Shown in pieces: positions 3,480-52,535 of a stretch of DNA of 64,000 bases. Numbering within the stretch: the first letter of the stretch is position 1; every line of letters starts with the position of its first letter. The position numbers were made by a program, and so were the translations under genes. The notes beneath the pieces are model-generated. The model had not been told where the DNA came from and ran no database searches. It saw only the letters and a list, made by a program, of their open reading frames with translations. Source of the DNA: Candidatus Woesearchaeota archaeon CG10_big_fil_rev_8_21_14_0_10_37_12 (lineage in GTDB: Archaea; Nanobdellota; Nanobdellia; Woesearchaeales; ARS49); contig PCYA01000014.1 of assembly GCA_002762795.1 (NCBI GenBank), positions 73,205 to 137,204 on the forward strand, in the 5' to 3' direction.

Positions 3480-3588
3480 CGGACCTGCAGGGATTCGAAC
3501 CCTGATCACTGGGTGTCTTGCAATGGTTAGCTCGTATCATTGCGGCCACTACCGAAGCCCAGCATTCTATCCATTAAACTACAGGCCC
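3480..3588 (-). tRNA. tRNA-Arg (anticodon UCG) with a ~36-nt intron after position 37
   Basis: Minus-strand cloverleaf. Acceptor GGGCCUG pairs with CAGGUCC (one G-U pair). The D-loop has GG, the T-arm is CAGGG-UUCGAAU-CCCUG, and the discriminator is G. Anticodon stem CUGGG/CCCAG is interrupted by 44 nt, consistent with loop CUUCGG plus an intron after position 37, giving anticodon UCG. No CCA is encoded. Confidence 0.7.
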
Positions 3589-3895: not shown

Positions 3896-4648
3896 TTATG
3901 GACAATTCTTTCTGAGAGTAGGGTCAATAATTCTTGCGCATGCTTTTGCATCATTTGTTGCATGGTAATAATCAAGATAACATTGGTCTCCTAGTTCTTG
4001 GCATTTTGACAGTTCCTTGTATTCAACTATTAAGTTAAACAGGCAAGTTTTTACTTTGGCCGTGTCTCTGTCTCGCCTACATTCTTCGTATTTTTTTGAT
4101 TTTTCTGCATCTGAATCATAATAGCATGTGTTTCCTGCACAATTAATTGATTTTTGTTGTAGTTGATTGTTTTGATTAATCTTTTGTGTGTTCTGTTGTG
4201 GTGCTTGTTCAACAAATAATTGTGGTACTTGAGCTTGTTCTTGTTTTGGTCTTGTTTCAAGCATTTGTGCTTGTGCTTGTACTGGTTGAACTTGAACTTG
4301 TTGTACTGGTACAACTGATGGTGTATCTATTTGTTCTGTGACTTGTATTTCTTTTGCTTGTATTTGTTCTGGTGTGATTGGATGAGGTACAAATCCTGTT
4401 GGTTCTTGTTGTGAAGGCATGAATACAGCTGCTGCTGCGAAAATAACGATGATTAGACCTAGCCATGTTGCTCTGAATGGTGTGAGTAATTTTTCTGGTT
4501 TTAAGTGATGTTCTTGTTCAACATGATGTATTGCTTGGAGAATATGGTCTTCTTGCCATCCTGCTGCAAGTAGATTTTGTGCGATGTGTTCTTGGGTGTG
4601 TTTTTGTTGTTTTGCTTTGCGCACGTAGTCTGTGAGTCTTTCGTTCAT
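3896..4648 (-). CDS. Hypothetical membrane-anchored protein with a Q/V-rich linker and a Cys-rich C-terminal domain
   Basis: 250-aa ORF with one hydrophobic helix (LGLIIVIFAAAAVFM), a Q-rich low-complexity stretch, and a C-terminal Cys cluster. Confidence 0.35.
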   Translation of the reverse strand: MNERLTDYVRKAKQQKHTQEHIAQNLLAAGWQEDHILQAIHHVEQEHHLKPEKLLTPFRATWLGLIIVIFAAAAVFMPSQQEPTGFVPHPITPEQIQAKEIQVTEQIDTPSVVPVQQVQVQPVQAQAQMLETRPKQEQAQVPQLFVEQAPQQNTQKINQNNQLQQKSINCAGNTCYYDSDAEKSKKYEECRRDRDTAKVKTCLFNLIVEYKELSKCQELGDQCYLDYYHATNDAKACARIIDPTLRKNCP

Positions 4649-22667: not shown

Positions 22668-25600
22668 TTATAAAACTTCCTGCACGTAATTTCTTTGATC
22701 GTACCATTTTCTGGAAGAAGTTGCAGTTCTTTGTTTAGGTCCTTTTTCAGATGGTAAAACATCTCGCGCATGAACAACTCTTTCCTTTTCGCCTCTATGA
22801 ACTGCAACAAAATGCTCTAAGTCTCGCATGAGTGCGTCGCTTGTTTCTTCTATTCCTGCTCCGGGTCCGGGGTTGATCGTGTATTGTTTTCCATCTGTAT
22901 TAAAGAGGAACAAATTATCTGTTGCTTGTAATCTGTAAAATGGATTTTCTTTGTGTACTTCTTGAAGTCCAACTGATATCCATCCTCTTTTTAATTTATC
23001 ATCATAATGAACTTCAGCAATGTAACAAAGTGATTTGTCTTTAGGAAGTTCTGTTTTAAGTTTTTCAAATGCTGAATCAAGAGGTTCTATTTGTTTAGCA
23101 AAGTCTGCTCCTTTTGCTGATGTAATAGAATTAAGATCAAAAGTTATTCCTGAATCTCGTTCATAAGCGTCAATTATTGGTTGAATGAAACTTTCATGTT
23201 CGATATTGCATGCACTGAAGCCAACACCATATCGTGTTGCTATTATTCTCCAAAGAATTATTGCTTTGTTTAAAACATCTCGTCCAGAATAGTCATCGTA
23301 CGGTTTTGGTTCTGTGTAGCCTTGTTCAATGGCAGTTGTGATAACTTCAGATAGTTTTTTTCCTTGTTCAAGTTCAGATAAAGTATAGCCTAAAGTTCCG
23401 CTCATAACACCTTGGACATGAATTGTTCTTGGTTTGTCTTTAATAAGATCCATTAATGTTTCTGTAGCTCCTAAGTTTGCGCCAACTGTTCCTCGTATGT
23501 GTACCCGGTCGTCAAATACTGCGTTCAACAACCGTCGAGATCTTGACCTTTTTCTCCATTCATTTGTTTTTTGACCAGCGCTCACAGAATTATTATAATT
23601 CATCGCGCAAGGTGTTTTGTTAACAGACACAACATCCATACCAAGAGCAAGCGCATAAGATTGCACGTCTGCCATGCAAGAGTTGTTTGTAGCATCAACA
23701 AACACAAAATCGCCTTTTTCCATTCCTTGAACGCTACGAATGTCTCTTAAGTCAAGATAAACAAGATCAAAAATCCTACTGCGATATTCACCAATCTCAG
23801 AAAAAGATTTTTGTTCTTTTCGTTTGACATGAATAATTTCACCAAGATCATATTCGCTAAATCCTCCAATTTTTGAAAGAACTCCTGTGCTGTCTGCAAC
23901 ACCAACAACATTAATACCTAGTTTATCATATGATTCGAGAGCTTTTTCCAAAAATCTTAAACCGACTTTTCCAGCACCAAAGAGGATAACATTTATTTTT
24001 TTGAGCTTGTTGTATGTGCAGCGAATAATATCTTCGATAGAGTCTGTTGGAACAACAACTTGTAAAAGTTCTGGATGATCTGGCGGAATAAACGGAACAA
24101 CTCGTCTGAATCCCGGAGCGAGTTTACCGTCCCTTACAAGAGTTTCTGCCACAAATTTTAAGTAATCCTTATACGCGTGACCTATTTTTTCTCCGCAAAC
24201 TGAAACAAGTGAACAATCTGGATAATGAGCGATTTGTGCAGGATCAAAAGCTTGTTCTCCCGTGCGTTCAGTAGTTTCATTTATTCGTTCAACAAGATTT
24301 GTGCCAAAGTGTGTTTTGTTGTCTCTGCCTTCTTTTGGTGTAGTTTGAATAACAAACGTTCCCAGAAGTCCATCTTTTGTTGTTTCAGCTTTTGAGTAAA
24401 GTAATCGAGCACCATCATATTCTTGAATTGTTCTTCGCACAAGATCAAATTCTGTTCCATCTTTAACATCAAACTCTCTGTAGGCAATGTTATGTAAAAC
24501 ACCAATGCCTTTCATTCGGGATCGTGATGATGTTGAAAATGAAGTGATAGTTGTTCCAGGGTCATCTGGATTGAATGTGTTTTTAACAACAGGAGAACAA
24601 GTTGCATTTCTTTCCAAAATGTCTAGTGCTTCTTGTTTAATAACAGGCATACCGCCAAACGAGCCAAGAGTTGCTACTTCTCTTCGAGAAATTTGCCTTA
24701 CTGTTTGTGCACCACCAAGAAGTTTTGGATCTGCAATTAGAACACCATCAGCATCAGAATAAATAAATGGTTGAGAAACTTTCAATGCAACAGCCAAAGC
24801 TATTGTTGTAACATTTGACCCGTCTCTTCCAAGAGTTGTTCTTCTTCCTTCTTCATCTTTTGCAACAAAACCAGGATAAAAAATAAGACGATGAGGATTT
24901 TGCTCTCGTAACTCTTTATGATAACGAGCGATGTCTGTTCTAAGGCTTTGTTCAAGAAGTTCTGCTTTTGTGAATTTTGAATCTGTTACAAAGCCAGCAT
25001 CACCTGATTCTACTGTTAAGACATATTTGCCATCGCACGAGTTTAAGCGTTCTAACAGGTGTTGTTCAGTAAGTTCCAGTTCTGTTCTTTCTTTTTTCTG
25101 CCTCAAACGAGTATGTTCTGCTGCAAGCTTTTGTTGTACAACTTCTGCAACTATCGGCGTTGATAATAATTCACCTATTGAAACAACAGAATCAGAAAGT
25201 GCACATTCATCAAGAGTTAACCCTATGTGCGACGCGCGTATTTGTTCTGTAACAAGTTCTTCAAGTTGAGAAAGTCTGTCTCGGACATCAGTTTTATCAA
25301 ATCTAAGTTCATCAAGCGTTACATAATGTTTTCTTCTGATCCTATTTATTCGGCGCAGTGCTGCTTCAGAATCTTTGTCCTTAACTGCCTGAACCACATT
25401 TAAACAATGATCTGTTATTTTTTTCTCTTTACTTCCGGGTGTTTTGCCAAGTGCAGAAACAACAACATTCACGTTTCTGTAACCAGTTAGCTCTTCAATA
25501 CCTAAATAACCATGAACTCGCGTCATATACTGGCGTACAATAATGTCTGCTACTAGATTGATATTTGCAGCTGTAGAAACAGAACTGCCCCCGAACTTGA

Positions 25601-25697
25601 TTATTGTTTCTTGCAAAGTGCCACTCCGAATAAAAATCAAAAGTGAAGATATAAAAGACTTGCCATTAAAAATAATTTGTCTATTGTCAAGAACCAT
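22668..25697 (-). CDS. Bifunctional aspartokinase / homoserine dehydrogenase (ThrA-like) with an extended central regulatory region
   Basis: 1009 aa. The N-terminal amino-acid-kinase motifs are IIKFGGSSV and VVSALGKT. The central region is ACT-like. The C-terminal half has the homoserine dehydrogenase NAD-binding motif ILFGAGKVG and conserved GVMSGTLGY and NPGPGAG blocks. Confidence 0.75.
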   Translation of the reverse strand: MVLDNRQIIFNGKSFISSLLIFIRSGTLQETIIKFGGSSVSTAANINLVADIIVRQYMTRVHGYLGIEELTGYRNVNVVVSALGKTPGSKEKKITDHCLNVVQAVKDKDSEAALRRINRIRRKHYVTLDELRFDKTDVRDRLSQLEELVTEQIRASHIGLTLDECALSDSVVSIGELLSTPIVAEVVQQKLAAEHTRLRQKKERTELELTEQHLLERLNSCDGKYVLTVESGDAGFVTDSKFTKAELLEQSLRTDIARYHKELREQNPHRLIFYPGFVAKDEEGRRTTLGRDGSNVTTIALAVALKVSQPFIYSDADGVLIADPKLLGGAQTVRQISRREVATLGSFGGMPVIKQEALDILERNATCSPVVKNTFNPDDPGTTITSFSTSSRSRMKGIGVLHNIAYREFDVKDGTEFDLVRRTIQEYDGARLLYSKAETTKDGLLGTFVIQTTPKEGRDNKTHFGTNLVERINETTERTGEQAFDPAQIAHYPDCSLVSVCGEKIGHAYKDYLKFVAETLVRDGKLAPGFRRVVPFIPPDHPELLQVVVPTDSIEDIIRCTYNKLKKINVILFGAGKVGLRFLEKALESYDKLGINVVGVADSTGVLSKIGGFSEYDLGEIIHVKRKEQKSFSEIGEYRSRIFDLVYLDLRDIRSVQGMEKGDFVFVDATNNSCMADVQSYALALGMDVVSVNKTPCAMNYNNSVSAGQKTNEWRKRSRSRRLLNAVFDDRVHIRGTVGANLGATETLMDLIKDKPRTIHVQGVMSGTLGYTLSELEQGKKLSEVITTAIEQGYTEPKPYDDYSGRDVLNKAIILWRIIATRYGVGFSACNIEHESFIQPIIDAYERDSGITFDLNSITSAKGADFAKQIEPLDSAFEKLKTELPKDKSLCYIAEVHYDDKLKRGWISVGLQEVHKENPFYRLQATDNLFLFNTDGKQYTINPGPGAGIEETSDALMRDLEHFVAVHRGEKERVVHARDVLPSEKGPKQRTATSSRKWYDQRNYVQEVL

Positions 25698-27631: not shown

Positions 27632-28738
27632 TTAGCTTAATCGCATAATCTCACCATTTTTAATTTGATTTTTTGCTGGTTTTGTTCCAATAACATCGCC
27701 ATTTTCATCAAATGATATCTTTCCAAGTATGCCGTCGTAAGGCTCCATTTCATAGAGCCAGTTTTTAATTGCAGTTGCGTCATAACCGACTGCCTCAATT
27801 GCGTTTTTTAGGATGTAAACTGAATCATATCGTGCTGCTGCTCCGTATTCAAATGCAGGATCTTCACCATACTTTTCTTTGTATTTTTCAAACAGTTTTT
27901 TCTTTTTTGGACTTTCTGATACTGGTGGTTCTGAGAAGAAGATCATCCCGTCTGCTAACGGGTGTTTTCTGACTTCTTTGTTTGTGCCGAAGAAATTTCC
28001 ATACAATTGTCCTTTGTAGCCAAGCTCCTGAAGTTGGTTCAATGAAGCAATTCCCGTTGCAGGAGTGTTTGGGTTCAAATAAATAACATCTGGCTTTTGC
28101 GCTAAAAGTTTAGTTAATTGAGTTCTATGGTCTTGAGAGTCTTGTTCGTAAAATTCTTCAATAACAGTTCTTCCTTCTTTTTCAAAATATTTTCTGATGA
28201 CTGTGCTGATGCCGACAGGATAGTTTGTTTGTTCTGTTATGAGCCCAACAGTTTTGTATTTGCTGAGCTCTTTTGCAAGAGAATTGCCCATTACTTCATC
28301 AGAATAAATTGTCCTGAAAATGTAATCTCCTGAATGAGTTATGTCTGGCAATGTTGCCCAAGCAGCAATAACAAGAACTTTGTTTTGTTCTGCTAAAGGT
28401 GAAATTCCAAAAGTCTCTGCACCACAAACAGACAATATTATTTTGACTTTATCAACTTCAATTAATTTCGTGGCTGCACTGACAGCACCTTTTGCAGTGC
28501 ATTTTCCATCTTCATAAATGACATTGACTTGTTTGCTATTAATTCCACCTGCTGAATTGATCTCATTAAGTGCAATTTCTATAACATTTTTTTCTAATAT
28601 GCCATAAATTGCAGAATCTCCAGATAATGGACCAACAAAGCCAATAGTTATTGTGTCTTCTGCTGTTGTTGCACCTGTGAGTGCTTGTCCGCAGCTAATT
28701 AATGATAGTAATACAAATAGTAAGAGTGGTTTTTTCAT
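27632..28738 (-). CDS. LivK-like (Peripla_BP_6) substrate-binding lipoprotein, orphan (module 1)
   Basis: Lipobox LISC. IGFVGPLSGDSAIYG...ALNEINSAGGINSKQVNVIYEDGKC follows the branched-chain amino acid binding protein fold signature. No permease or ATPase is adjacent. Confidence 0.75.
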   Translation of the reverse strand: MKKPLLLFVLLSLISCGQALTGATTAEDTITIGFVGPLSGDSAIYGILEKNVIEIALNEINSAGGINSKQVNVIYEDGKCTAKGAVSAATKLIEVDKVKIILSVCGAETFGISPLAEQNKVLVIAAWATLPDITHSGDYIFRTIYSDEVMGNSLAKELSKYKTVGLITEQTNYPVGISTVIRKYFEKEGRTVIEEFYEQDSQDHRTQLTKLLAQKPDVIYLNPNTPATGIASLNQLQELGYKGQLYGNFFGTNKEVRKHPLADGMIFFSEPPVSESPKKKKLFEKYKEKYGEDPAFEYGAAARYDSVYILKNAIEAVGYDATAIKNWLYEMEPYDGILGKISFDENGDVIGTKPAKNQIKNGEIMRLS

Positions 28739-32182: not shown

Positions 32183-33271
32183 TTGGTGATTACAATGAAA
32201 CAAACAGCGATAACAACTACTGCAATTCTGCTTTTATTTTTAGCAGGTTGTGTAATAGAAACAAGTAAAGAAGACACAATAAAGCTTGGCGCGATTATGA
32301 GTTTAACAGGTTTTGCGTCAGATTACGGAACAAATTCTCAGAAAGGCGCTCAATTAGCTGTTGAAGAAATCAATGCGAATGGTGGAATTAACGGCAAACA
32401 AATAGAATTAATTTTTGAAGATGATCGCACTGATGGGAAAGCTGCTGTTTCGGGAGCTACAAAATTAATTGAAATTGATAACGTTGATGCAATTATTGGA
32501 GGAACATGGGATTTAAGCTTAGAACCAATTGCTCCATTAGCAGACCAGCACAACATAATCATCATCAACCCTTCAACAGGAAACACAAAAGATACAAGAC
32601 TTGCAAAAAATGTTTTTATCACATGGCCTGCTATAAAATATCAAGTATATGAATTAGAAGAAACATTAACACAGGAAAACATCACAACAGCCGTTGTTAT
32701 TAGAAATGCTGGTGCGTGGTCTCAATCACAAGAAACACATCTGGAAAAACTCCTGGAAAAAATAAATGGGAGTATCCTGAAACTAATGATTGGTTATGAA
32801 GTTGATAATAATGATTTCCGTTCTGAGATAAGTATCGCTAAACAATTAAATCCAGATTTGTTATATCTCGGTCTTGGTTATAACGATGCTGCAAATGTAG
32901 TGCAGTTCACTCAAGAGCAGGATTTTCATCCAGTAATCGTAACATTAAGCGGCGCTTTTGAATACGCTATTGAAAAAGGAAGTATCAAGAAAGAACACCT
33001 CAAAAAAACATACATTCCAGACGTTATCCCAAACGAAAATACAGAGTTTTACAAAAAGTTTGAAACAAGATTTGGTAAACCTCCGGGAATTACTGCTGAT
33101 ACTGCATACAAAGCAGTAATGCTCCTTGCAGAAGCGTGGGAGAAAACAGGAACAACAAACACAGATGAAGTTCGAGATTACCTAAACTCGCTTGACTTCT
33201 TTGATGAGAATGGTGATGCAAAAAAACCTGTTCCAGTGCGAAAAATTGAGAGCAGAACGTATGTTGAATAA
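32183..33271 (+). CDS. LivK-like substrate-binding lipoprotein, orphan (module 2)
   Basis: Lipobox LAGC. IKLGAIMSLTGFASDYG...AVEEINANGGINGKQIELIFEDDRTDG matches the family signature. Confidence 0.75.
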   Translation: MVITMKQTAITTTAILLLFLAGCVIETSKEDTIKLGAIMSLTGFASDYGTNSQKGAQLAVEEINANGGINGKQIELIFEDDRTDGKAAVSGATKLIEIDNVDAIIGGTWDLSLEPIAPLADQHNIIIINPSTGNTKDTRLAKNVFITWPAIKYQVYELEETLTQENITTAVVIRNAGAWSQSQETHLEKLLEKINGSILKLMIGYEVDNNDFRSEISIAKQLNPDLLYLGLGYNDAANVVQFTQEQDFHPVIVTLSGAFEYAIEKGSIKKEHLKKTYIPDVIPNENTEFYKKFETRFGKPPGITADTAYKAVMLLAEAWEKTGTTNTDEVRDYLNSLDFFDENGDAKKPVPVRKIESRTYVE

Positions 33272-34916: not shown

Positions 34917-36020
34917 GTGGTAAAAATCATGAAGAAATTCGTACTCAGTATTCTGGCATTTATTTTTTTATTCTCATGTGCATCTCAAAGTGATGAAGTC
35001 GTTATTGGTGCTATTTTCCCATTAACTGGCGATTACTCATCTATGGGCGAAAGTTACTTGTCTGCATTAGAGATTGCTGCAGAACAAGCAAATGTTAAAT
35101 TTATAGTTGAGAACGAGGGTAGTTGTGATGTAAAATCTGCATTAACTGCTGCACAAAAACTTGTGACTATTGACAAGGTTGATTTTTTAATTGGTCCTGT
35201 TTGTTTAATCACATTTAATGCTGTGTTGCCGTTTGCTGAAGAAAATAATATTGCAATGTTTGGTCCTTCAGTTGATCAAACTATTATTGATGAACAAAGC
35301 GAGACGTATAAAAATGTTGCAGTTGGTTTGTATCCTGCATTTCATAAAACGTGGTATCAACTTGCAGAAGAAGCATACAAAAAAGGGAAAAAAATTGCCG
35401 TTCTACAAACTGTTGATGAAGGTCCTGAACGAAATGTTGCAAAATTCACGGATAAATATGAAGAACTTGGTGGAGATATTATTTTGCATGAGCGTGTTGA
35501 TGCTGGTACAAAAGATTTCAGAACATTGCTTTTGAAGCTTGACAATTTAGCCAAGAAGAAGTCTGGCTTAATTATTTGGCCGCATTTAGCCAGAGACGAT
35601 AGAATTTTGTTCTATAAACAAAAAGACGAACTAAATGTCTTGCAAGGAGCTTATTTATTAGGAGATTTGTTTATTGATCTTGAATTACAGCCATTTTTGG
35701 ATGCGTTAGGAGAAGAAACATTAGAAGGTGTTATATCTACAACATACAAAGATGCTATGTCTGAAGAGTTCAAAAAAGCATTAAAAAACAAATTTAATGT
35801 TGATCCTGTTCTTGGAACCGATAACGTGTATGACGCAGTAGTTCATGGTTCTGAAATTAGTAAAGACTGCAATAAAAATTCTGAATGTATAATTTCAAGA
35901 TTCAAAAATACAGATTATGCTGGCGTCTCTGGAAAGTTAGAGTTTGATGAAACAGGCAACAGAGTTGGAACAGTTGTGACAAGAATACTAAATAATGGAA
36001 CGTTTGTGATTAAAAATTAG
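34917..36020 (+). CDS. LivK-like substrate-binding lipoprotein, orphan (module 3)
   Basis: Lipobox LFSC. VVIGAIFPLTGDYSSMG...ALEIAAEQANVKF. It is more divergent but keeps the same fold signature and length. Confidence 0.65.
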   Translation: MVKIMKKFVLSILAFIFLFSCASQSDEVVIGAIFPLTGDYSSMGESYLSALEIAAEQANVKFIVENEGSCDVKSALTAAQKLVTIDKVDFLIGPVCLITFNAVLPFAEENNIAMFGPSVDQTIIDEQSETYKNVAVGLYPAFHKTWYQLAEEAYKKGKKIAVLQTVDEGPERNVAKFTDKYEELGGDIILHERVDAGTKDFRTLLLKLDNLAKKKSGLIIWPHLARDDRILFYKQKDELNVLQGAYLLGDLFIDLELQPFLDALGEETLEGVISTTYKDAMSEEFKKALKNKFNVDPVLGTDNVYDAVVHGSEISKDCNKNSECIISRFKNTDYAGVSGKLEFDETGNRVGTVVTRILNNGTFVIKN

Positions 36021-36568: not shown

Positions 36569-36693
36569 GCTGACGTCGCGTAATCTGGTATCGCACAAGC
36601 CTGGAAATTTGCGAGTTCACGAGCAAAATTCGGGAATTCCTTCACGAGAGCTTGACCCGCAAGGGTATCCCGGTTCAAATCCGGGCGTCAGCG
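36569..36693 (+). tRNA. tRNA-Ser (anticodon GGA) with a ~43-nt intron after position 37 and a long variable arm
   Basis: Acceptor GCUGACG/CGUCAGC with discriminator G. The D-loop contains GG. Anticodon stem CAAGC...GCUUG is separated by loop CUGGAA plus an intron, giving anticodon GGA. The variable arm is long (ACCCGCAAGGGUAU), and the T-arm is CCCGG-UUCAAAU-CCGGG. Confidence 0.7.
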
Positions 36694-42540: not shown

Positions 42541-43665
42541 TTGAATGAAAGTTTATATGCTTTGTGGTTTTTACAACACGTAATGAAAGTGATGACAACA
42601 TTAATGACGACCGTGCTTGTGTTAATTCTGATTAGTTGCACTACAAATAATGAAACAATCAAAATCGGGGGAGTGTTTCATTTAACAGGCCCTGCTGCTG
42701 TTTGGGGCGAGGGCGAGATGAATGCTGCTGCTTTGGCTGTAGAAGAGATTAACAATGCAGGCGGAATTAATGGAAAACAAACAGAACTTATTATCGAGGA
42801 TTCTAAAACTGATTTTACTACAACAACTACTGCGTTCAGAAAACTAATTGAGTTAGATGAAATAAAAATGATTGTTGGTCCTACTTGGTTTGGGCAAGTT
42901 GCGTATCAAATTGCGGATGAAACGGGAACAATAATTATTTCTCCGTCGACAGGAACAAGTACGCCATCAACAATCTATTTTTTCAATTTGTGGCCGCATG
43001 AACGAGCACAAATCATTCCTGAAATAGAATATATGAAAACAGAAGGAATTAAAAAAATCGCAATTGTACATACCACAAATGAATGGTCTGAATCAATGAA
43101 GCAAAATTTTGTTGATGAAGCAAGAAAACAGAATTTAACAATTGTTAAAGAGTTTGGCTCTGCTCCTGATGAACAGGATTTCAAAACAATCATTACGCAA
43201 TTAAAACAGTTGGATATTGATGTAGTGTATGCTCCGTTTGCGTTTTACCCATCACAAGGCGCGTTTAGTAAGCAAGCTAAAGAGTTAGGGTTAACAATTC
43301 CAATTTATTCTACAGATGGAACAGAAAATGTCGAGTTGCTAACTGCATTTCCTGAAATTGAAGGAACTATTTACCCTTATCGAACAAAAGGGCCAAGAGA
43401 AGATGAGTTTATTTCGAACTACAGAGCAAAGTTCAATAAAGATCCTTCTCCAGCGTCAGCGTATGCGTATGATGCTGTTATGTTGCTTGTAGGTACGCTA
43501 AAAGAGGGGAAACAAAGCCCTGATGAAATTGCTGATTATTTGCGCTCAATTAAAAATCATATTGGTGCGTCAAACAGAATCACATTTGATGAATTTGGAA
43601 GAGTTGCTGAAAAACCTTACGAGATGAAAATTGTTGAAAATAACTCGTTCATAATAATATCTTAA
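42541..43665 (+). CDS. LivK-like substrate-binding lipoprotein, orphan (module 4)
   Basis: The likely true start is at the internal Met near 42583 (MKVMTTLMTTVLVLILISC, lipobox LISC). IKIGGVFHLTGPAAVWG...ALAVEEINNAGGINGKQTELIIEDSKTD matches the family signature. Confidence 0.7.
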   Translation: MNESLYALWFLQHVMKVMTTLMTTVLVLILISCTTNNETIKIGGVFHLTGPAAVWGEGEMNAAALAVEEINNAGGINGKQTELIIEDSKTDFTTTTTAFRKLIELDEIKMIVGPTWFGQVAYQIADETGTIIISPSTGTSTPSTIYFFNLWPHERAQIIPEIEYMKTEGIKKIAIVHTTNEWSESMKQNFVDEARKQNLTIVKEFGSAPDEQDFKTIITQLKQLDIDVVYAPFAFYPSQGAFSKQAKELGLTIPIYSTDGTENVELLTAFPEIEGTIYPYRTKGPREDEFISNYRAKFNKDPSPASAYAYDAVMLLVGTLKEGKQSPDEIADYLRSIKNHIGASNRITFDEFGRVAEKPYEMKIVENNSFIIIS

Positions 43666-46665: not shown

Positions 46666-46762
46666 GCCGAAGTAGTATAGTCCGGTCAAGTATGCGGCCC
46701 TCTCGAATACAATAAAAGTATAGAGTCCGGCTGAAACCCGGGTTCGAATCCCGGCTTCGGCA
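46666..46762 (+). tRNA. tRNA-like gene with a ~25-nt insertion (probable non-canonical intron). Structure and anticodon are unresolved; one candidate is GAA (Phe).
   Basis: Perfect 7-bp acceptor GCCGAAG/CUUCGGC with discriminator A, and a canonical T-arm CCGGG-UUCGAAU-CCCGG. A Phe-like anticodon hairpin UCCGG-CUGAAAC-CCGGG is present but overlaps the T-stem. There is an internal near-duplication (AGTATAGTCCGG ... AGTATAGAGTCCGG). No standard cloverleaf can be drawn without removing an insertion. Confidence 0.45.
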
Positions 46763-46775
46763 TATTACATCAAAA

Positions 46776-46970
46776 ATGGAAAAATACAAAAGATTCCTTA
46801 GAAAAATCAAATGGTTTTTAGACTTTGCATCAAAACTTACGATAGGTGTTGCCGGTGGCTTAACAGTTATTTCAGCAACAAAAGGAGCATCTTATTTTCT
46901 ATTAGCAGTTTGGGCATTAACACTTTTTGCTGGCATAGGAGCTTGTTTTTTACTTGATCAAGTAGATTAG
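46776..46970 (+). CDS. Hypothetical small membrane protein
   Basis: 64-aa ORF with two hydrophobic helices. Confidence 0.3.
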   Translation: MEKYKRFLRKIKWFLDFASKLTIGVAGGLTVISATKGASYFLLAVWALTLFAGIGACFLLDQVD

Positions 46971-47764: not shown

Positions 47765-49500
47765 ATCTTTAAGAATTCTCCATTTTTCAATACTTCAGTC
47801 AATGTTCCTCTAGCAACTATATTGCCTTTTTTAAACAAATAAATTTTATCAAAGTGAGTAAGCAAATGCAATCTATGTATTGAGGAAATTATGGTTTTAT
47901 TTTTGAATTCTGAAAATATTCCTTTGTATATTTGTAGTTCATTTTTTGGATCGACACTGCTTGTTGGTTCATCCAATAATAAGATTGGTTTGTTTTCAGA
48001 AGCAAGCAGGCCTCTTGTGAGGGCCAGTCTTTGTTTCTCGCCACCGCTTAAATTGACTCCTTTTTCTACTATTGATGAGTCTAATCCTCTTGGAAGTTTT
48101 TTAATAATTTTTGTAAAGCAAGCAATGTTTCCATATTTTTTTATTTGACTGTCAGAATATCTGCCGCCCATTGTTATGTTTTCTCGTATTGTTGTTGTGA
48201 AAAGTTCAGGATCTTGTGGCAAAAGTAATATGTTGGATCCTATCGCGTTAAATCCTTGCTGGATATGTTTATTATCTACAAGCAAGTTAACTTGTTTAGG
48301 TTTGTATAGTCCTCGAAGTAATTTAAGAAATGTTGTTTTTCCGCTACCACTCTCTCCAACAAGTGCTATTCTTTCGTTTCTTTTTATGGACAGCGATATT
48401 GAATTAAGATGTAATTCCCCTTCATCACCCGCATAATTAAAACTCAGGTTGTTGATGGATATTTTTTGCCAATTATTGTTAAGATTGATCTGTTTTATTG
48501 TTTGTTCATTTTTAAACTCATTGCTTATTTCTTCTGCATTCTCAACTGCAGTTTTCCATCTAACTATATCTCCATACCTGTAAGCAAATCTGAAAAATAT
48601 ATCCTTTATGCGCTCAACATATCCATACAGTGCGTAAAGTGATCCAATTAAAATGGGCAATCCTGCATGATAGTTTTTGAAGATGTAAGTTCCAAGAACT
48701 AAAAACATCATGATTCCTCCAAATAAAGATACCAAAAACCATTTCACTTCGTTAAGTTTAGCGTTTTCTTTGAATATTGAGAATGGTGCAAGCATTCTTT
48801 GAAGAATTTGTTTTGATGCAAGTTTTTCTAAACGTAAAATTACTACTGTTGTTATGTTGCTTATAGTATCGTAGACTTTTTCAGTTATTCTATTGTCTGC
48901 TAGATTTAACTCTCTATATTGTTTTCTTAATTTATTATCATATGTAAAAATAACATGCAAGGTTATCAGAATAACAAATGCAACAATGTATGCTGAATGA
49001 ATATTAAAATATACCAAAGCAAAGTAAGATCCTACTAGTTTCATTATTGTATCTATTACTTCAAAAGTAGTTCCTGAATACTGTTCAAGTGCAACTGTGC
49101 CTTTTTCTATTTTGTCAATAGTATTTCCTGAGTGATGGTTTGTATGCCAGTCCATTGGCAAATTCATTGTGCCATCAATCAAACTTTTCTTGTAATTGAC
49201 TTCAACCATGAATGCGTTTTTTCGTTCAATAACTCTTGCAGGCCCGTGAAAAATCCAAAACCCGAGAACAAGTAAGATAAATAAAAAGAGCAGTCCCAGA
49301 ATTGTTGGAATGTTGCCTGAATGAATTCCCTGTTCTTGAATTATATTCAATAATTTTGCAACAATGAGTGGCTCAAAGAATGCTACAATGCCTGAGCAAA
49401 AAAATAGGAAAGTACACAAAATCAATGAAGAACGATTTCCTTTTGAATAAGTCCACATTAATCTTGTTAAATAAATAATAGGATCGTCTTTAAAGCTCAT
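47722..49500 (-). CDS. ABC exporter, fused transmembrane domain and ATPase (MsbA-like half-transporter)
   Basis: 592 aa with six N-terminal helices. Walker A is GESGSGKTT, the signature is LSGGEKQRLALTRGL, and Walker B is ILLLDEPTSSVD. Confidence 0.8.
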   Translation of the reverse strand: MSFKDDPIIYLTRLMWTYSKGNRSSLILCTFLFFCSGIVAFFEPLIVAKLLNIIQEQGIHSGNIPTILGLLFLFILLVLGFWIFHGPARVIERKNAFMVEVNYKKSLIDGTMNLPMDWHTNHHSGNTIDKIEKGTVALEQYSGTTFEVIDTIMKLVGSYFALVYFNIHSAYIVAFVILITLHVIFTYDNKLRKQYRELNLADNRITEKVYDTISNITTVVILRLEKLASKQILQRMLAPFSIFKENAKLNEVKWFLVSLFGGIMMFLVLGTYIFKNYHAGLPILIGSLYALYGYVERIKDIFFRFAYRYGDIVRWKTAVENAEEISNEFKNEQTIKQINLNNNWQKISINNLSFNYAGDEGELHLNSISLSIKRNERIALVGESGSGKTTFLKLLRGLYKPKQVNLLVDNKHIQQGFNAIGSNILLLPQDPELFTTTIRENITMGGRYSDSQIKKYGNIACFTKIIKKLPRGLDSSIVEKGVNLSGGEKQRLALTRGLLASENKPILLLDEPTSSVDPKNELQIYKGIFSEFKNKTIISSIHRLHLLTHFDKIYLFKKGNIVARGTLTEVLKNGEFLKIWKKYTQKREMQEK

Positions 49501-49614
49501 CAGTAAAGAAAAAGAGCAGCCCTTTTTATGGAATCGTTGTCACCAAAGAATGATAATAATCAAAAAGTTTTTATAGATGGTGTTCTCTCAAAAAGCAAAT
49601 TGGAGGTAAAACCA

Positions 49615-49695
49615 ATGAAAGAACAAATAAGAAGTAAACAAAAAATATCCTTTTCTGCTAGTGTAACTACTAATTCTAATAACAATAATAATTAA
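49615..49695 (+). CDS. Candidate leader peptide (26 aa) ending in six Asn codons within eight, upstream of aspS
   Basis: A GGAGGT sits 7 nt upstream of ATG. The sequence is MKEQIRSKQKISFSASVTTNSNNNNN*. It is followed at 49726-49753 by hairpin GCGCTT-GATC-AAGTGC plus TAATCTTTTCTG. Confidence 0.35.
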   Translation: MKEQIRSKQKISFSASVTTNSNNNNN

Positions 49696-49725
49696 TTGTG
49701 CAATTCATCTAAACGAAATGTTTTG

Positions 49726-49753
49726 GCGCTTGATCAAGTGCTAATCTTTTCTG
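49726..49753 (+). terminator. Intrinsic-terminator-like hairpin with a U-rich tail (candidate attenuator) in the aspS leader
   Basis: GCGCUU/AAGUGC is a 6-bp stem (one G-U pair) with loop GAUC, then UAAUCUUUUCUG. It lies 65 nt upstream of the AspRS start. Confidence 0.35.
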
Positions 49754-49818
49754 AAAAGTGAGTTGTAAATCATTCAAAACAAGTTAAGAAAGAATAGCGA
49801 TAGCCATGGAGGATTAAA

Positions 49819-51081
49819 ATGAAACGAACACTCATAAAAGAATTAAAAAAACACTTTGGAAAGGAGGTTTTGGTTAAAGGCTGGGTTAGCAGAATTAGAG
49901 AAATTGGAGGTATTGGTTTTGTACTGTTAAGAGAACGGTCCGGAGTTGTGCAATTAGTAGTGCCAAAAGAATTGTACAAAGAGTTATCAGCAGAAACACC
50001 GATTGAAATAAAAGGCATGGTTTGTGCTGAACAGCGTGCTCCTGAAGGTTTAGAAGTACATGTAAAACAACTGAAAATCTACAGCAAAGTGCAGCCTTTG
50101 CCGATTCAGTTAGAGAAGGAATTGCCTCTGCCTACATTAATGAAGCATCGTCCGATTTCTTTGAGGGCAAAAAAACAACAAGCGATTTTTAAAGTTCATG
50201 CAGAACTAGTGCATGCTTTTAGAGAATTTATGAGATCAAAAGAATTTACAGAGATTCATAGCACAAAACTTACAAGCAGCGGTTTGGAAGGCGGCAGTGA
50301 AATTTTCGAGTTGCAATATTTTGAAAAGAAAGGATATCTTGCTCAGAGCCCTCAATTCTATAAGCAGATGATGGTTGGAGTGTTTGAGCGAGTATTTGAA
50401 GTTGGCAAAGTATACCGTGCAGAACCACACGCTACAACAAGACATCTTGCAGAATATGTTGGTTTGGATTTTGAAATGGGTTTTATTGAGTCTGTTGAAG
50501 AAGTAATGGAAATGGAAGAAGCTCTGCTAAAATATGTGTTCAAGCAGTTAGAGGAACATTGTAAATCTGAATTAAAATTGTTTGGTGCAGAGGTTCCTCG
50601 GATAAAATCAATACCAAGAATTCCTTTTTTGAAAGCAGTAGAGTTGCTTGAGCAAGGTTACAAAAAAGAATTCGGTAAAGAAGATTTAACTCCTGAAATG
50701 GAGCGTTTGCTTTGTGAATTTGTAAAACAAAAATATGGCGAGGAGTTTGTTTTTGTTACAGAGTATCCTTGGAAAAAGCGTCCGTTTTATGCAATGCCAA
50801 AAGGAGAATTGTCTGAAAGCTTTGATTTGCTTTTCAGAGGCTTAGAGATCACGACTGGAGGACAAAGAGTGCACGAATACGAACAACTGCTTGAATGTAT
50901 GAAGCAGAAAAAAGTCAAGCCTGAAGCGTTTGAGAGTTATTTGATGTGCTTTAAATACGGCATGCCTCCTCATGGAGGTCTTGGAATAGGGTCTGAGCGT
51001 ATTGTGAAGCAATTGCTTGGCTTGCCGTCTGTAGAAGAAGCCAGTCTCATACCACGAACGAAAGAACGGTTCCTGCACTGA
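49819..51081 (+). CDS. aspS: Aspartyl-tRNA synthetase, archaeal/eukaryal type (class IIb, probably non-discriminating)
   Basis: 420 aa. There is an N-terminal OB-fold anticodon-binding region (VLVKGWVSRIREIGGIGFVLLRERSG). Class II motif 2 is FRAEPHATTRHLAEYVGLDFEM and motif 3 is GMPPHGGLGIGSERIV. The length is typical of archaeal AspRS. GGAGG sits 6 nt upstream of ATG. Confidence 0.85.
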   Translation: MKRTLIKELKKHFGKEVLVKGWVSRIREIGGIGFVLLRERSGVVQLVVPKELYKELSAETPIEIKGMVCAEQRAPEGLEVHVKQLKIYSKVQPLPIQLEKELPLPTLMKHRPISLRAKKQQAIFKVHAELVHAFREFMRSKEFTEIHSTKLTSSGLEGGSEIFELQYFEKKGYLAQSPQFYKQMMVGVFERVFEVGKVYRAEPHATTRHLAEYVGLDFEMGFIESVEEVMEMEEALLKYVFKQLEEHCKSELKLFGAEVPRIKSIPRIPFLKAVELLEQGYKKEFGKEDLTPEMERLLCEFVKQKYGEEFVFVTEYPWKKRPFYAMPKGELSESFDLLFRGLEITTGGQRVHEYEQLLECMKQKKVKPEAFESYLMCFKYGMPPHGGLGIGSERIVKQLLGLPSVEEASLIPRTKERFLH

Positions 51082-51443: not shown

Positions 51444-52535
51444 TTAATTAATTGTTACAAACTTTCCATTGCGTGCTGTTTTTATGCTGACTTCTTCTCG
51501 TTGTCCGATGCCACGATTATCAACTGAAAGGTATCCGTTTGCTCCTTCATACCCCTCTATATTGTAAAGTTTTTGCTTGATGCATTCGCTATGATTTCCA
51601 CAAGTATCAAGTGCTTTTGCTAAAAGCATATAACTATCGTACGCGTTTGCTGCGTACAGTCCTGGTTCTTCTCCGTATTCAGCAAGGTATGCTTGTTTGA
51701 ATGCGATTTTGCGTGGCAAGTCTTTTGGGTCTTCAGGATACGTGTACACAACACGTTCTGCAAGTTTGCCAAGCTGATCAATGACGTTCTGATCCTGATA
51801 TAAGTTCCAAGTTAAAATGGGCAAATTTATGCCGAGTTCTTCTGCTTGTTTTACGAGAAGAATGCTGTCTGGAACGTACCCTAAAATATATATTGCCTCA
51901 GGGTCTTTGTTTGCGATTTTCATAAGATATGTTCGGAAGTCTGTTTCTTGAGTATCAAGACTATTTACATAGTATTCTTCAGCGGTAAACATAATATTGT
52001 TTGTGTCAAGTGCTTGTTTAAGTTCAGCAATGCTTTCTCGTCCAAGATCATCATCTATTGCAATTGCTGCAATTGAAGAATAATTTTTTTCTACTGCATA
52101 GTTTGTAATTGCAGTCATTTGTTTGTTCATTTCTGGAAGAAAACTGAAATGGTAATCGCCTGCCTCTGCGGTTGCTTGTAGCACCATGCCCAAGGTGATG
52201 CGCGGTGTTTGTGTTTCTTCAATGTAAGGTGCTGATGCAAGCAAGGAGACTGTACAAATAGGTCCAAGAATTGCATCAACGTCGTCCACAGTAAGTAGTT
52301 TTTGTGTTGCTAACACTCCTGTTTTTGGATCGCATTTGTCATCTTCTACAATAAGTTTGTATTGGTTGCCTGTTTCTTTTGCTGCAAGTTGTATACCGTT
52401 AAGTAATTCCTCGCCAAGATGTGCTGCTTTGCCTGTTTGCGGAATTAATATTCCTATTGTTGATTCTTGCACTGTTTGCGTGCACGATAGCAATAGGACT
52501 AATAAAATGACATAGTGTTTCATGTAACCACCCAA
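51444..52535 (-). CDS. LivK-like substrate-binding lipoprotein, orphan (module 5)
   Basis: Lipobox LLSC. TIGILIPQTGKAAHLG...AAKETGNQYKLIVEDDKCD. Confidence 0.75.
   Translation of the reverse strand: MGGYMKHYVILLVLLLSCTQTVQESTIGILIPQTGKAAHLGEELLNGIQLAAKETGNQYKLIVEDDKCDPKTGVLATQKLLTVDDVDAILGPICTVSLLASAPYIEETQTPRITLGMVLQATAEAGDYHFSFLPEMNKQMTAITNYAVEKNYSSIAAIAIDDDLGRESIAELKQALDTNNIMFTAEEYYVNSLDTQETDFRTYLMKIANKDPEAIYILGYVPDSILLVKQAEELGINLPILTWNLYQDQNVIDQLGKLAERVVYTYPEDPKDLPRKIAFKQAYLAEYGEEPGLYAANAYDSYMLLAKALDTCGNHSECIKQKLYNIEGYEGANGYLSVDNRGIGQREEVSIKTARNGKFVTIN

Follow-up and report, generated by a model that had tools for sequence, protein, structure and literature searches.

Why should the gene for an aspartyl-tRNA synthetase (AspRS) in an archaeon be preceded by a very short open reading frame (ORF) that ends in a run of asparagine codons? 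This question is raised by a 64,000-nucleotide (nt) stretch of contig PCYA01000014.1 (positions 73,205 to 137,204; assembly GCA_002762795.1) of Candidatus Woesearchaeota archaeon CG10_big_fil_rev_8_21_14_0_10_37_12, referred to here as the window, in which an archaeal-type aspS gene lies downstream of a 26-codon ORF. An earlier reading made from the letters of this DNA (the sequence-only reading) had proposed that the leader ORF, together with a hairpin and a U-rich tract behind it, forms a transcription attenuator in which ribosomes stalling on Asn codons sense the supply of Asn-tRNA. Comparison with related loci leads us to consider it reasonably probable that, through the leader ORF, the ribosome senses the supply of Asn/Asp-tRNA for the control of aspS. 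The fuller proposal, namely a woesearchaeal leader-peptide sensor whose Asn and Asp codons would tune a non-discriminating AspRS through an output that does without a bacterial hairpin terminator, is put forward somewhat more tentatively.

The leader ORF itself is as the sequence-only reading had described it: the 26 codons, the Shine-Dalgarno (SD) sequence, the TNSNNNNN-stop ending and the six Asn codons are all in place. Asn occupies codons 20 and 22-26 (five AAT and one AAC), which makes six of the last seven sense codons. In the six-frame translation of the whole 64 kb, the leader tail is the only case of at least six Asn within an eight-residue window. Among 1012 ATG-started ORFs of 10-60 codons in the window, at least five Asn/Asp in the last ten residues were found for the leader tail alone, which is counted twice in this survey (as a 26-codon and as a 55-codon version). 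A full GGAGG at the right distance precedes four of the 1012 small ORFs, the leader ORF among them. The Asn tail is beyond chance; the hairpin and T-rich tail that follow are not. Public gene calls contain a longer leader ORF of 55 codons with its ATG at 49528. This reading was rejected, as its start has neither SD nor TATA box and overlaps the divergent promoters, and it is further disfavoured by the ORFs of the relatives, which have 21-37 codons and an SD. Because the 55-codon start also precedes the predicted transcription start, the 26-codon ORF is preferred as the first cistron.

The arrangement of translation and promoter signals in the window suggests how the leader ORF and aspS may be expressed. 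A TATA-like motif at -34..-19 without an SD, which is the leaderless pattern, was found for 19 of 55 window ORFs, an SD without a TATA box for 13 genes, and both together for none (examples of these window starts are 4648, 36466, 43849 and 49500). These counts point to first genes that are leaderless and to SD-only genes that are internal or leadered cistrons. The TATA distance was calibrated by hand counts on three genes, in which the last base of the box lies 20-21 nt before the ATG. With a distance of about 22 nt after 49575, calibrated on leaderless genes, transcription of the leader is predicted to start at about 49597, just 5' of the leader SD. No good TATA box was seen between the hairpin and aspS. 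Since aspS has an SD only and the leader ORF has a TATA box further upstream, both are read as parts of one transcript, in which aspS looks like the second cistron. For the divergent ABC-transporter gene, a separate box is present at leaderless distance (49522-49529, minus strand). Among the window gene starts, the leader ORF at 49615 is unusual in being an SD-led first cistron.

The strongest evidence comes from the closest relatives. The closest AspRS clade consists of five lineages (P0001-P0005) with 61-68% mutual identity, other hits reaching at most 59%; the comparison of upstream regions covers four lineages (the window itself, WIN; L089/L090; L088; and L085), P0004 not being included. 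In all four, the order is the same: TATA box, SD, an ORF of 21-37 codons, a spacer of 52-150 nt, SD, and aspS. GGAG(G) is located 7-10 nt before the leader ATG and an TTTATATA-type box 45-60 nt upstream in each lineage, and the final codons of all four leader ORFs are rich in Asn or in Asn plus Asp. The Asn/Asp run stops 0-1 codon short of the stop codon in the relatives, and two of the three relatives have Asp codons alongside Asn. In L088, the tail is a mixed series of AAC, GAT, AAT and GAC codons with no repeat. The four peptides (Table 1) have only an MK start and an Asn/Asp-rich end in common, the spacers measure 123, 81, 150 and 52 nt, and no shared motif or structure was found in the four spacers by k-mers with mismatches, by minimum-energy folds or by SD accessibility with modelled ribosomes.

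Selection appears to act on the codons, since neither the peptides nor the spacers are related in other respects. The position of the ORF has been kept, as have its translation signals, its frame and the type of its codons, and all else has diverged, which looks like the pattern of a leader peptide, and the combination of Asn and Asp codons fits the two tRNAs that a non-discriminating AspRS would charge. The existence of the ORF, its translation signals, its codon bias and its conservation are direct observations. The sequence-only reading had named as a check whether related genomes keep the small ORF together with its Asn run; such an ORF was found in four of four lineages, and the idea of a stalling sensor of Asn-tRNA is strengthened because a leader ORF with an Asn or Asn plus Asp end is present in every one of them. 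Independent assemblies of the same lineage (L001-L003 compared with the window; L084-L087) have 100% identical leaders, and microdiversity is uninformative here. L098 was set aside as a truncated gene fragment, and P0010, P0011, P0006, P0007, P0009, P0016 and P0035 as members of other groups.

Table 1. Features of the leader-aspS region of the window, with the leader peptides of the four lineages compared
Feature	Position	Strand	Remark
Putative archaeal TATA box for leader-aspS transcription, TTTTTATA	49568..49575	+	transcription start predicted at about 49597
SD of leader ORF, GGAGG	49602..49606	+	8 nt 5' of ATG 49615
Leader ORF, 26 codons, peptide MKEQIRSKQKISFSASVTTNSNNNNN-stop	49615..49695	+	stop at 49693-49695
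UCCUUUU in leader ORF, predicted pairing with aspS SD (candidate anti-SD)	49647..49653	+	window only, low confidence
Asn codon run N-S-N-N-N-N-N (AAT TCT AAT AAC AAT AAT AAT)	49672..49692	+	abuts leader stop codon
9-bp hairpin TTGGCGCTT-GATC-AAGTGCTAA	49723..49744	+	encloses 10-bp palindrome CTTGATCAAG
T-rich tail TCTTTTCTG	49745..49753	+	four consecutive T at most
SD of aspS, GGAGG	49808..49812	+	TATA box at -34..-19 absent
aspS, archaeal-type AspRS, 420 aa	49819..51081	+	probably non-discriminating
Leader peptide WIN, MKEQIRSKQKISFSASVTTNSNNNNN-stop			tail VTTNSNNNNN-stop
Leader peptide L089/L090, MKTQKHKGKQSTAKIVSTRSLNNNSLSNNDNQ-stop			tail TRSLNNNSLSNNDNQ-stop
Leader peptide L088, MKTKIERQEIWQVKSFSIARAINDNYNSDNFDNDDDN-stop			tail AINDNYNSDNFDNDDDN-stop
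Leader peptide L085, MKEIKQIGSIKLEVSLANNNC-stop			tail SLANNNC-stop

We also analyzed the enzyme encoded by aspS. Its product falls into the NCBIfam family of aspartate--tRNA(Asn) ligases (NF003483; 531 bits against a cutoff of 353), scores above cutoff against TIGR00458 (389 bits), and is 100% identical to an NCBI protein of Candidatus Woesearchaeota archaeon CG10_big_fil_rev. The best solved relative is the non-discriminating AspRS2 of Thermus thermophilus (1N9W, E 1.7e-117). In the anticodon-binding loop, RAPEGLEV of the window aligns with KAPGGLEV of 1N9W and with KAKLGFEI of T. kodakarensis; at the position of the Thermus Pro, WIN and P0005 also have Pro, P0003 and P0004 have Lys, and P0002 has Gln. 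Following Feng et al. (2003), we assume that this Pro is significant and that the T. kodakarensis enzyme is discriminating. Judged by the family models and this one loop residue, the window AspRS is probably non-discriminating, in agreement with the sequence-only reading, which had called it an archaeal-type enzyme of this kind. No AspRS paralogue was found in the 64-kb window, which is part of a contig of about 784 kb, and scans of 26 window ORFs against Pfam or NCBIfam gave no match to a Gat subunit family.

In the explanation that we favour, the 26-codon ORF would be a leader peptide gene, the SD-initiated first cistron of a two-cistron leader-aspS mRNA with its own TATA promoter. How fast the ribosome crosses the Asn run directly before the stop would serve as a readout of charged tRNA-Asn, and in relatives with Asp codons charged tRNA-Asp would be reported as well; the sensed charged tRNAs would be products of the pathway begun by the AspRS that aspS encodes. 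When charging is low, the ribosome would stall at the 3' end of the leader ORF with its footprint extending into the start of the spacer, and aspS expression would go up. The likeliest output would be a remodelling of the spacer RNA that acts at the level of translation, the aspS SD of the window being predicted to pair with UCCUUUU, and leaky termination at short T tracts may contribute. Leader translation, ribosome stalling, the sign of the regulation and the mechanism of its output are inferences, and so is the ranking of translational remodelling above hairpin termination as the output.

The most likely specific form of this favoured sensor is translational attenuation of the ermC/cat type, in which a hidden ribosome-binding site of aspS would be exposed by a stalled ribosome, or by a queue of them, in the leader ORF. 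Taken as a mechanism by itself, it is possible and still rather unlikely. In the minimum-energy fold of the window leader, the aspS SD is paired with 49649-49653 (UCCUU), and its modelled unpaired probability is 0.03, against 0.65 with the entire leader ORF masked. The Asn run stands at the end of the ORF in four of four lineages, and the footprint of a ribosome stalled there would extend over the first 12-15 nt of the spacer. Minimum-energy folding predicts, for all four lineages, a helix that begins in this region or overlaps the leader stop (49699-49708 in the window, directly after the stop in L088, overlapping it in L089 and L085), and its start would be covered in these models if a ribosome came to a halt on the terminal Asn/Asp codons. 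Since both cistrons have an SD, nothing specific to bacteria would be required. As in ermC/cat translational attenuation (PMC5499644), a ribosome halted on the first ORF would open up the ribosome-binding site of the cistron behind it, and that type of control requires only SD-dependent initiation, which appears to be used in the window organism for internal cistrons. Unlike the tRNA shortage proposed for the window leader, stalling in ermC/cat systems results from a drug plus the nascent peptide (PMC5499644), and the SD-sequestering hairpin is well defined there, whereas it is a weak and window-specific prediction here.

Several points weigh against the sensor, and the first of them bear on its translational form in particular. 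Without any ribosome, the aspS SDs of the three relatives have unpaired probabilities of 0.45-0.71, so that strong occlusion is predicted in the window only. A single modelled ribosome at the Asn codons gives hardly any relief, leaving the window SD unpaired with a probability of only 0.04-0.21. Predictions for AU-rich RNA are unreliable, and the four unalignable sequences allow no covariation test. No common structure ties stalling to an output across the four lineages in the folding models, and the fold energies of the leader are unremarkable (z -1.4 to -1.5). Uncoupling of ribosome and RNA polymerase in archaea is expected to raise termination (polarity), which is opposite in sign to what a purely transcriptional model needs. 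The Asn codons of L085 number only three, and some relatives may not charge tRNA-Asn, given the Lys or Gln in their anticodon-binding loops. Furthermore, the sample is small (four lineages with DNA), and both translation of the leader and its co-transcription with aspS are predictions.

The form of output proposed by the sequence-only reading is improbable. It is a classical attenuator in which fast translation of the leader would allow the hairpin at 49723-49744 and the U tract to terminate transcription, and a stall at the Asn codons would bring about an antiterminator and readthrough. The hairpin was indeed found where that reading had placed it: its core, GCGCTT-GATC-AAGTGC, begins 30 nt 3' of the leader stop, extends to nine pairs and is followed by TCTTTTCTGA, as a consensus scan also reports, and it appears in all unconstrained folds of the window leader. 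The leader ORF with cognate codons, kept in the relatives, agrees with a classical attenuator too. The U tract is weak, with only four consecutive U, and one terminator-like site in 700 nt, against 0.4 expected, is not significant alone. The terminators after genes here are T5-T7 runs directly past the stop codon without a hairpin, compared with T4 in the leader; to our knowledge, the termination mechanism established for archaea is not one that depends on a hairpin. The hairpin is not conserved: the terminator-like site is absent from the leaders of the three relatives L089, L088 and L085, and the L089 spacer has no T run at all. As for the alternative antiterminator pairing that had been envisaged, a manual search of the window leader found no upstream segment complementary to 49723-49731 that could compete with the hairpin. 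With a ribosome placed on the Asn codons or on the stop codon, the total free energy of constrained folds of the whole leader stayed between -28.6 and -34.7 kcal/mol. Of the attenuator as first proposed, the ribosome-stalling Asn sensor has gained from the conserved ORF, and its hairpin/U-tract output is unsupported.

A point in favour of termination comes from more distant, phage-like relatives, in which a strong, covarying hairpin and U-run terminator lies between a short ORF and aspS. AspRS sequences that are 51-56% identical to that of the window share the C-terminal motif SLIPRTKE.F.H, and such distant relatives occur on contigs of up to 508 kb that are listed as viral in IMG/VR, with clusters of aminoacyl-tRNA synthetase and tRNA genes. 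At least ten distant loci (L106, at 1273-1409, L110, L114, L107, L108, L092/L094, L116, L165, L167 and L170) have a leader element 80-100 nt upstream of aspS. It contains a conserved ORF of about 20 codons, M[KR]KIFKLNDDCYLWTDC..D-stop, directly after an TATATTTG motif, a long conserved hairpin with an invariant GAUGAU (Asp-Asp) in its stem, and a strong terminator (CCCAGUUAG...CUAACUGGG followed by U6-7) in which compensatory changes are seen between loci. The 3'-end reading frame of the ORF is not always kept. No Rfam family matched this leader, and modelled ribosome masking removed its terminator in no state, so that classical leader-peptide logic is not demonstrable for it. For these reasons, the element may be a structured RNA switch instead of, or besides, a leader peptide, and we regard it as a candidate for a new attenuator or for an element resembling a riboswitch. 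It shows that, outside the archaeal group, aspS genes of this clade are preceded by premature termination, and the mechanism in the window is not thereby established.

Two of these phage-like loci deserve separate mention. In L171, a leader MRKLYTKYDQSQDDDRLRSLTG-stop and a terminator (773-900) are followed by two tRNA-Asp and two tRNA-Gln genes (1037-1367) and by aspS at 1390; the element may control a tRNA-Asp/aspS unit. In L094 (130-10466; IMG/VR UViG_3300049793_000366, 508 kb), AspRS is accompanied by class II G/H/P/S/T-type, Glu/Gln-type and Ile/Leu/Val/Met-type synthetases, and a comparable situation is seen in L170. The placement of the L094 AspRS in the woesearchaeal clade is a hint that DPANN archaea have exchanged genes with huge phages or with the hosts of such phages.

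Little likelihood attaches to the view that the leader ORF has no sensing role at all, being either a chance ORF in AT-rich intergenic DNA or a generic 'starter' cistron whose codons have drifted to AAT. A G+C content of 36% and the frequency of AAT repeats as low-complexity sequence would be in line with it, as would the L085 tail of only NNN and the lack of any structural output among the leaders compared. Such a tail occurs only once in the 64 kb, however, drift would equally favour Lys, Ile and Phe codons, and the mixed codons of the L088 tail are not a repeat. Moreover, the SD, the ATG, the frame and the Asn/Asp-rich end have been kept in four independent lineages in which the rest has diverged.

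Least credible is the view that the ORF codes for a functional small protein, that the palindrome CTTGATCAAG is an operator through which a dimeric regulator acts on a separate aspS promoter, or both: public annotations show a 55-aa protein here, the 10-bp palindrome is perfect and has two exact copies 2.8 kb apart (49729-49738 and 46953-46962), and a TrmB-family regulator gene lies 1.5 kb downstream, but the peptide is conserved neither in sequence nor in length and matches no family, the 55-codon start has the defects described above, the palindrome is missing in the relatives, and the region from the hairpin to aspS offers no good TATA box. The second copy was rejected as operator evidence, as it is part of a coding region, namely the 3' end of the 64-codon ORF at 46776-46970. 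With at most one mismatch, nine matches to the palindrome were found against 3.6 expected, and the paired copies are probably a coincidence.

The favoured ribosome-based sensor can be compared with known systems. E. coli pheST, with its pheM leader, and the bacterial trp, his, thr and leu leaders are classical leader-peptide attenuators. Like leaders of the pheST/trp/his type, the woesearchaeal element is a short, SD-led 5'-leader ORF rich in codons for the amino acid of the downstream gene, and its peptide is unconserved save for the regulatory codons and the MK start; as in pheST, the downstream gene encodes an aminoacyl-tRNA synthetase. It differs from that type in its archaeal host and in its Asn or Asn plus Asp codons, which belong to an indirect, tRNA-dependent pathway. 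In addition, it has no conserved terminator/antiterminator pair, and its codon run abuts the stop.

A precedent for charging control at this aspS family exists because 15 of 16 Firmicute loci tested (including L005, L016 and L044) carry a T-box just upstream of an orthologous archaeal-type aspS. These T-boxes lie about 100-600 nt upstream of aspS at 4001, and the specifier was read as GAC (Asp) in the three alignments inspected. In a scan of contigs with the whole AspRS, the matches listed were Firmicute and other bacterial sequences with 45-51% identity, which served the T-box comparison but were of no use for synteny. The T-box of C. acetobutylicum is described as controlling an ND-AspRS-GatCAB-AsnB unit (Saad et al. 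2012, J Biol Chem 287:20382, as cited in PMC4574755). The Firmicute T-box thus resembles the proposed archaeal leader in placing the same enzyme family under charging control by its own tRNA; unlike the archaeal leader, it binds uncharged tRNA directly and does not need translation. The T-box model RF00230 does detect the leaders of the Firmicute orthologues. Searches with Rfam gave no match to the leader, neither in the window at gathering score, nor in 49400-49900 at E up to 10, nor in 12 related loci at gathering score, where tRNAs were the only matches.

A further parallel is found in mycobacteria, in which short, leaderless polycysteine ORFs are reported to be cysteine-responsive attenuators of operonic expression (bioRxiv 10.1101/834739). 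They share with the window leader a run of one codon in a short ORF upstream of genes of the matching pathway. They differ in being bacterial, leaderless and specific for Cys, whereas the window ORF is SD-led amid mostly leaderless first cistrons. A search of the full-text literature on leader peptides or attenuation in archaea yielded work on bacteria only; its coverage is incomplete, so that novelty is supported and not proven.

The archaeal origin of the window, indicated by the AspRS match, is also reflected in TrmB-family and Hel308-like genes and in three Rfam tRNA matches of 97-125 nt (3480-3588 on the minus strand, 36569-36693 and 46666-46762 on the plus strand), which were not reported by ARAGORN and are probably intron-containing archaeal tRNAs. 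Five paralogous genes for lipoprotein-like receptors of the Peripla_BP_6/branched-chain amino-acid type (27632-28738, 32183-33271, 34917-36020, 42541-43665 and 51444-52535) were observed within 64 kb, a striking expansion for a small genome. In a 1009-aa ORF on the minus strand (22668-25697), aspartate kinase and homoserine dehydrogenase domains are joined to about 220 N-terminal residues that have no match; this is an unexpected biosynthetic capacity for a DPANN archaeon.

Leader-peptide attenuation is a bacterial classic, and cis-acting sensing of tRNA charging is not established in archaea, in which few regulatory leaders are known. If the proposed role of the leader ORF is true, it would be the first case of codon-sensing leader-peptide control in Archaea in the searchable literature, and the first for the indirect Asn-tRNA pathway. 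The AspRS family would then have come under charging control at least twice, through T-boxes in Firmicutes and through leader ORFs in archaea. A mostly leaderless transcriptome would have gained a dedicated, SD-led mini-cistron for sensing. The leader, at about 250 nt, is a small construct for the study of transcription-translation coupling and attenuation in an archaeal host. More generally, archaea would also employ the translating ribosome as a metabolite sensor.

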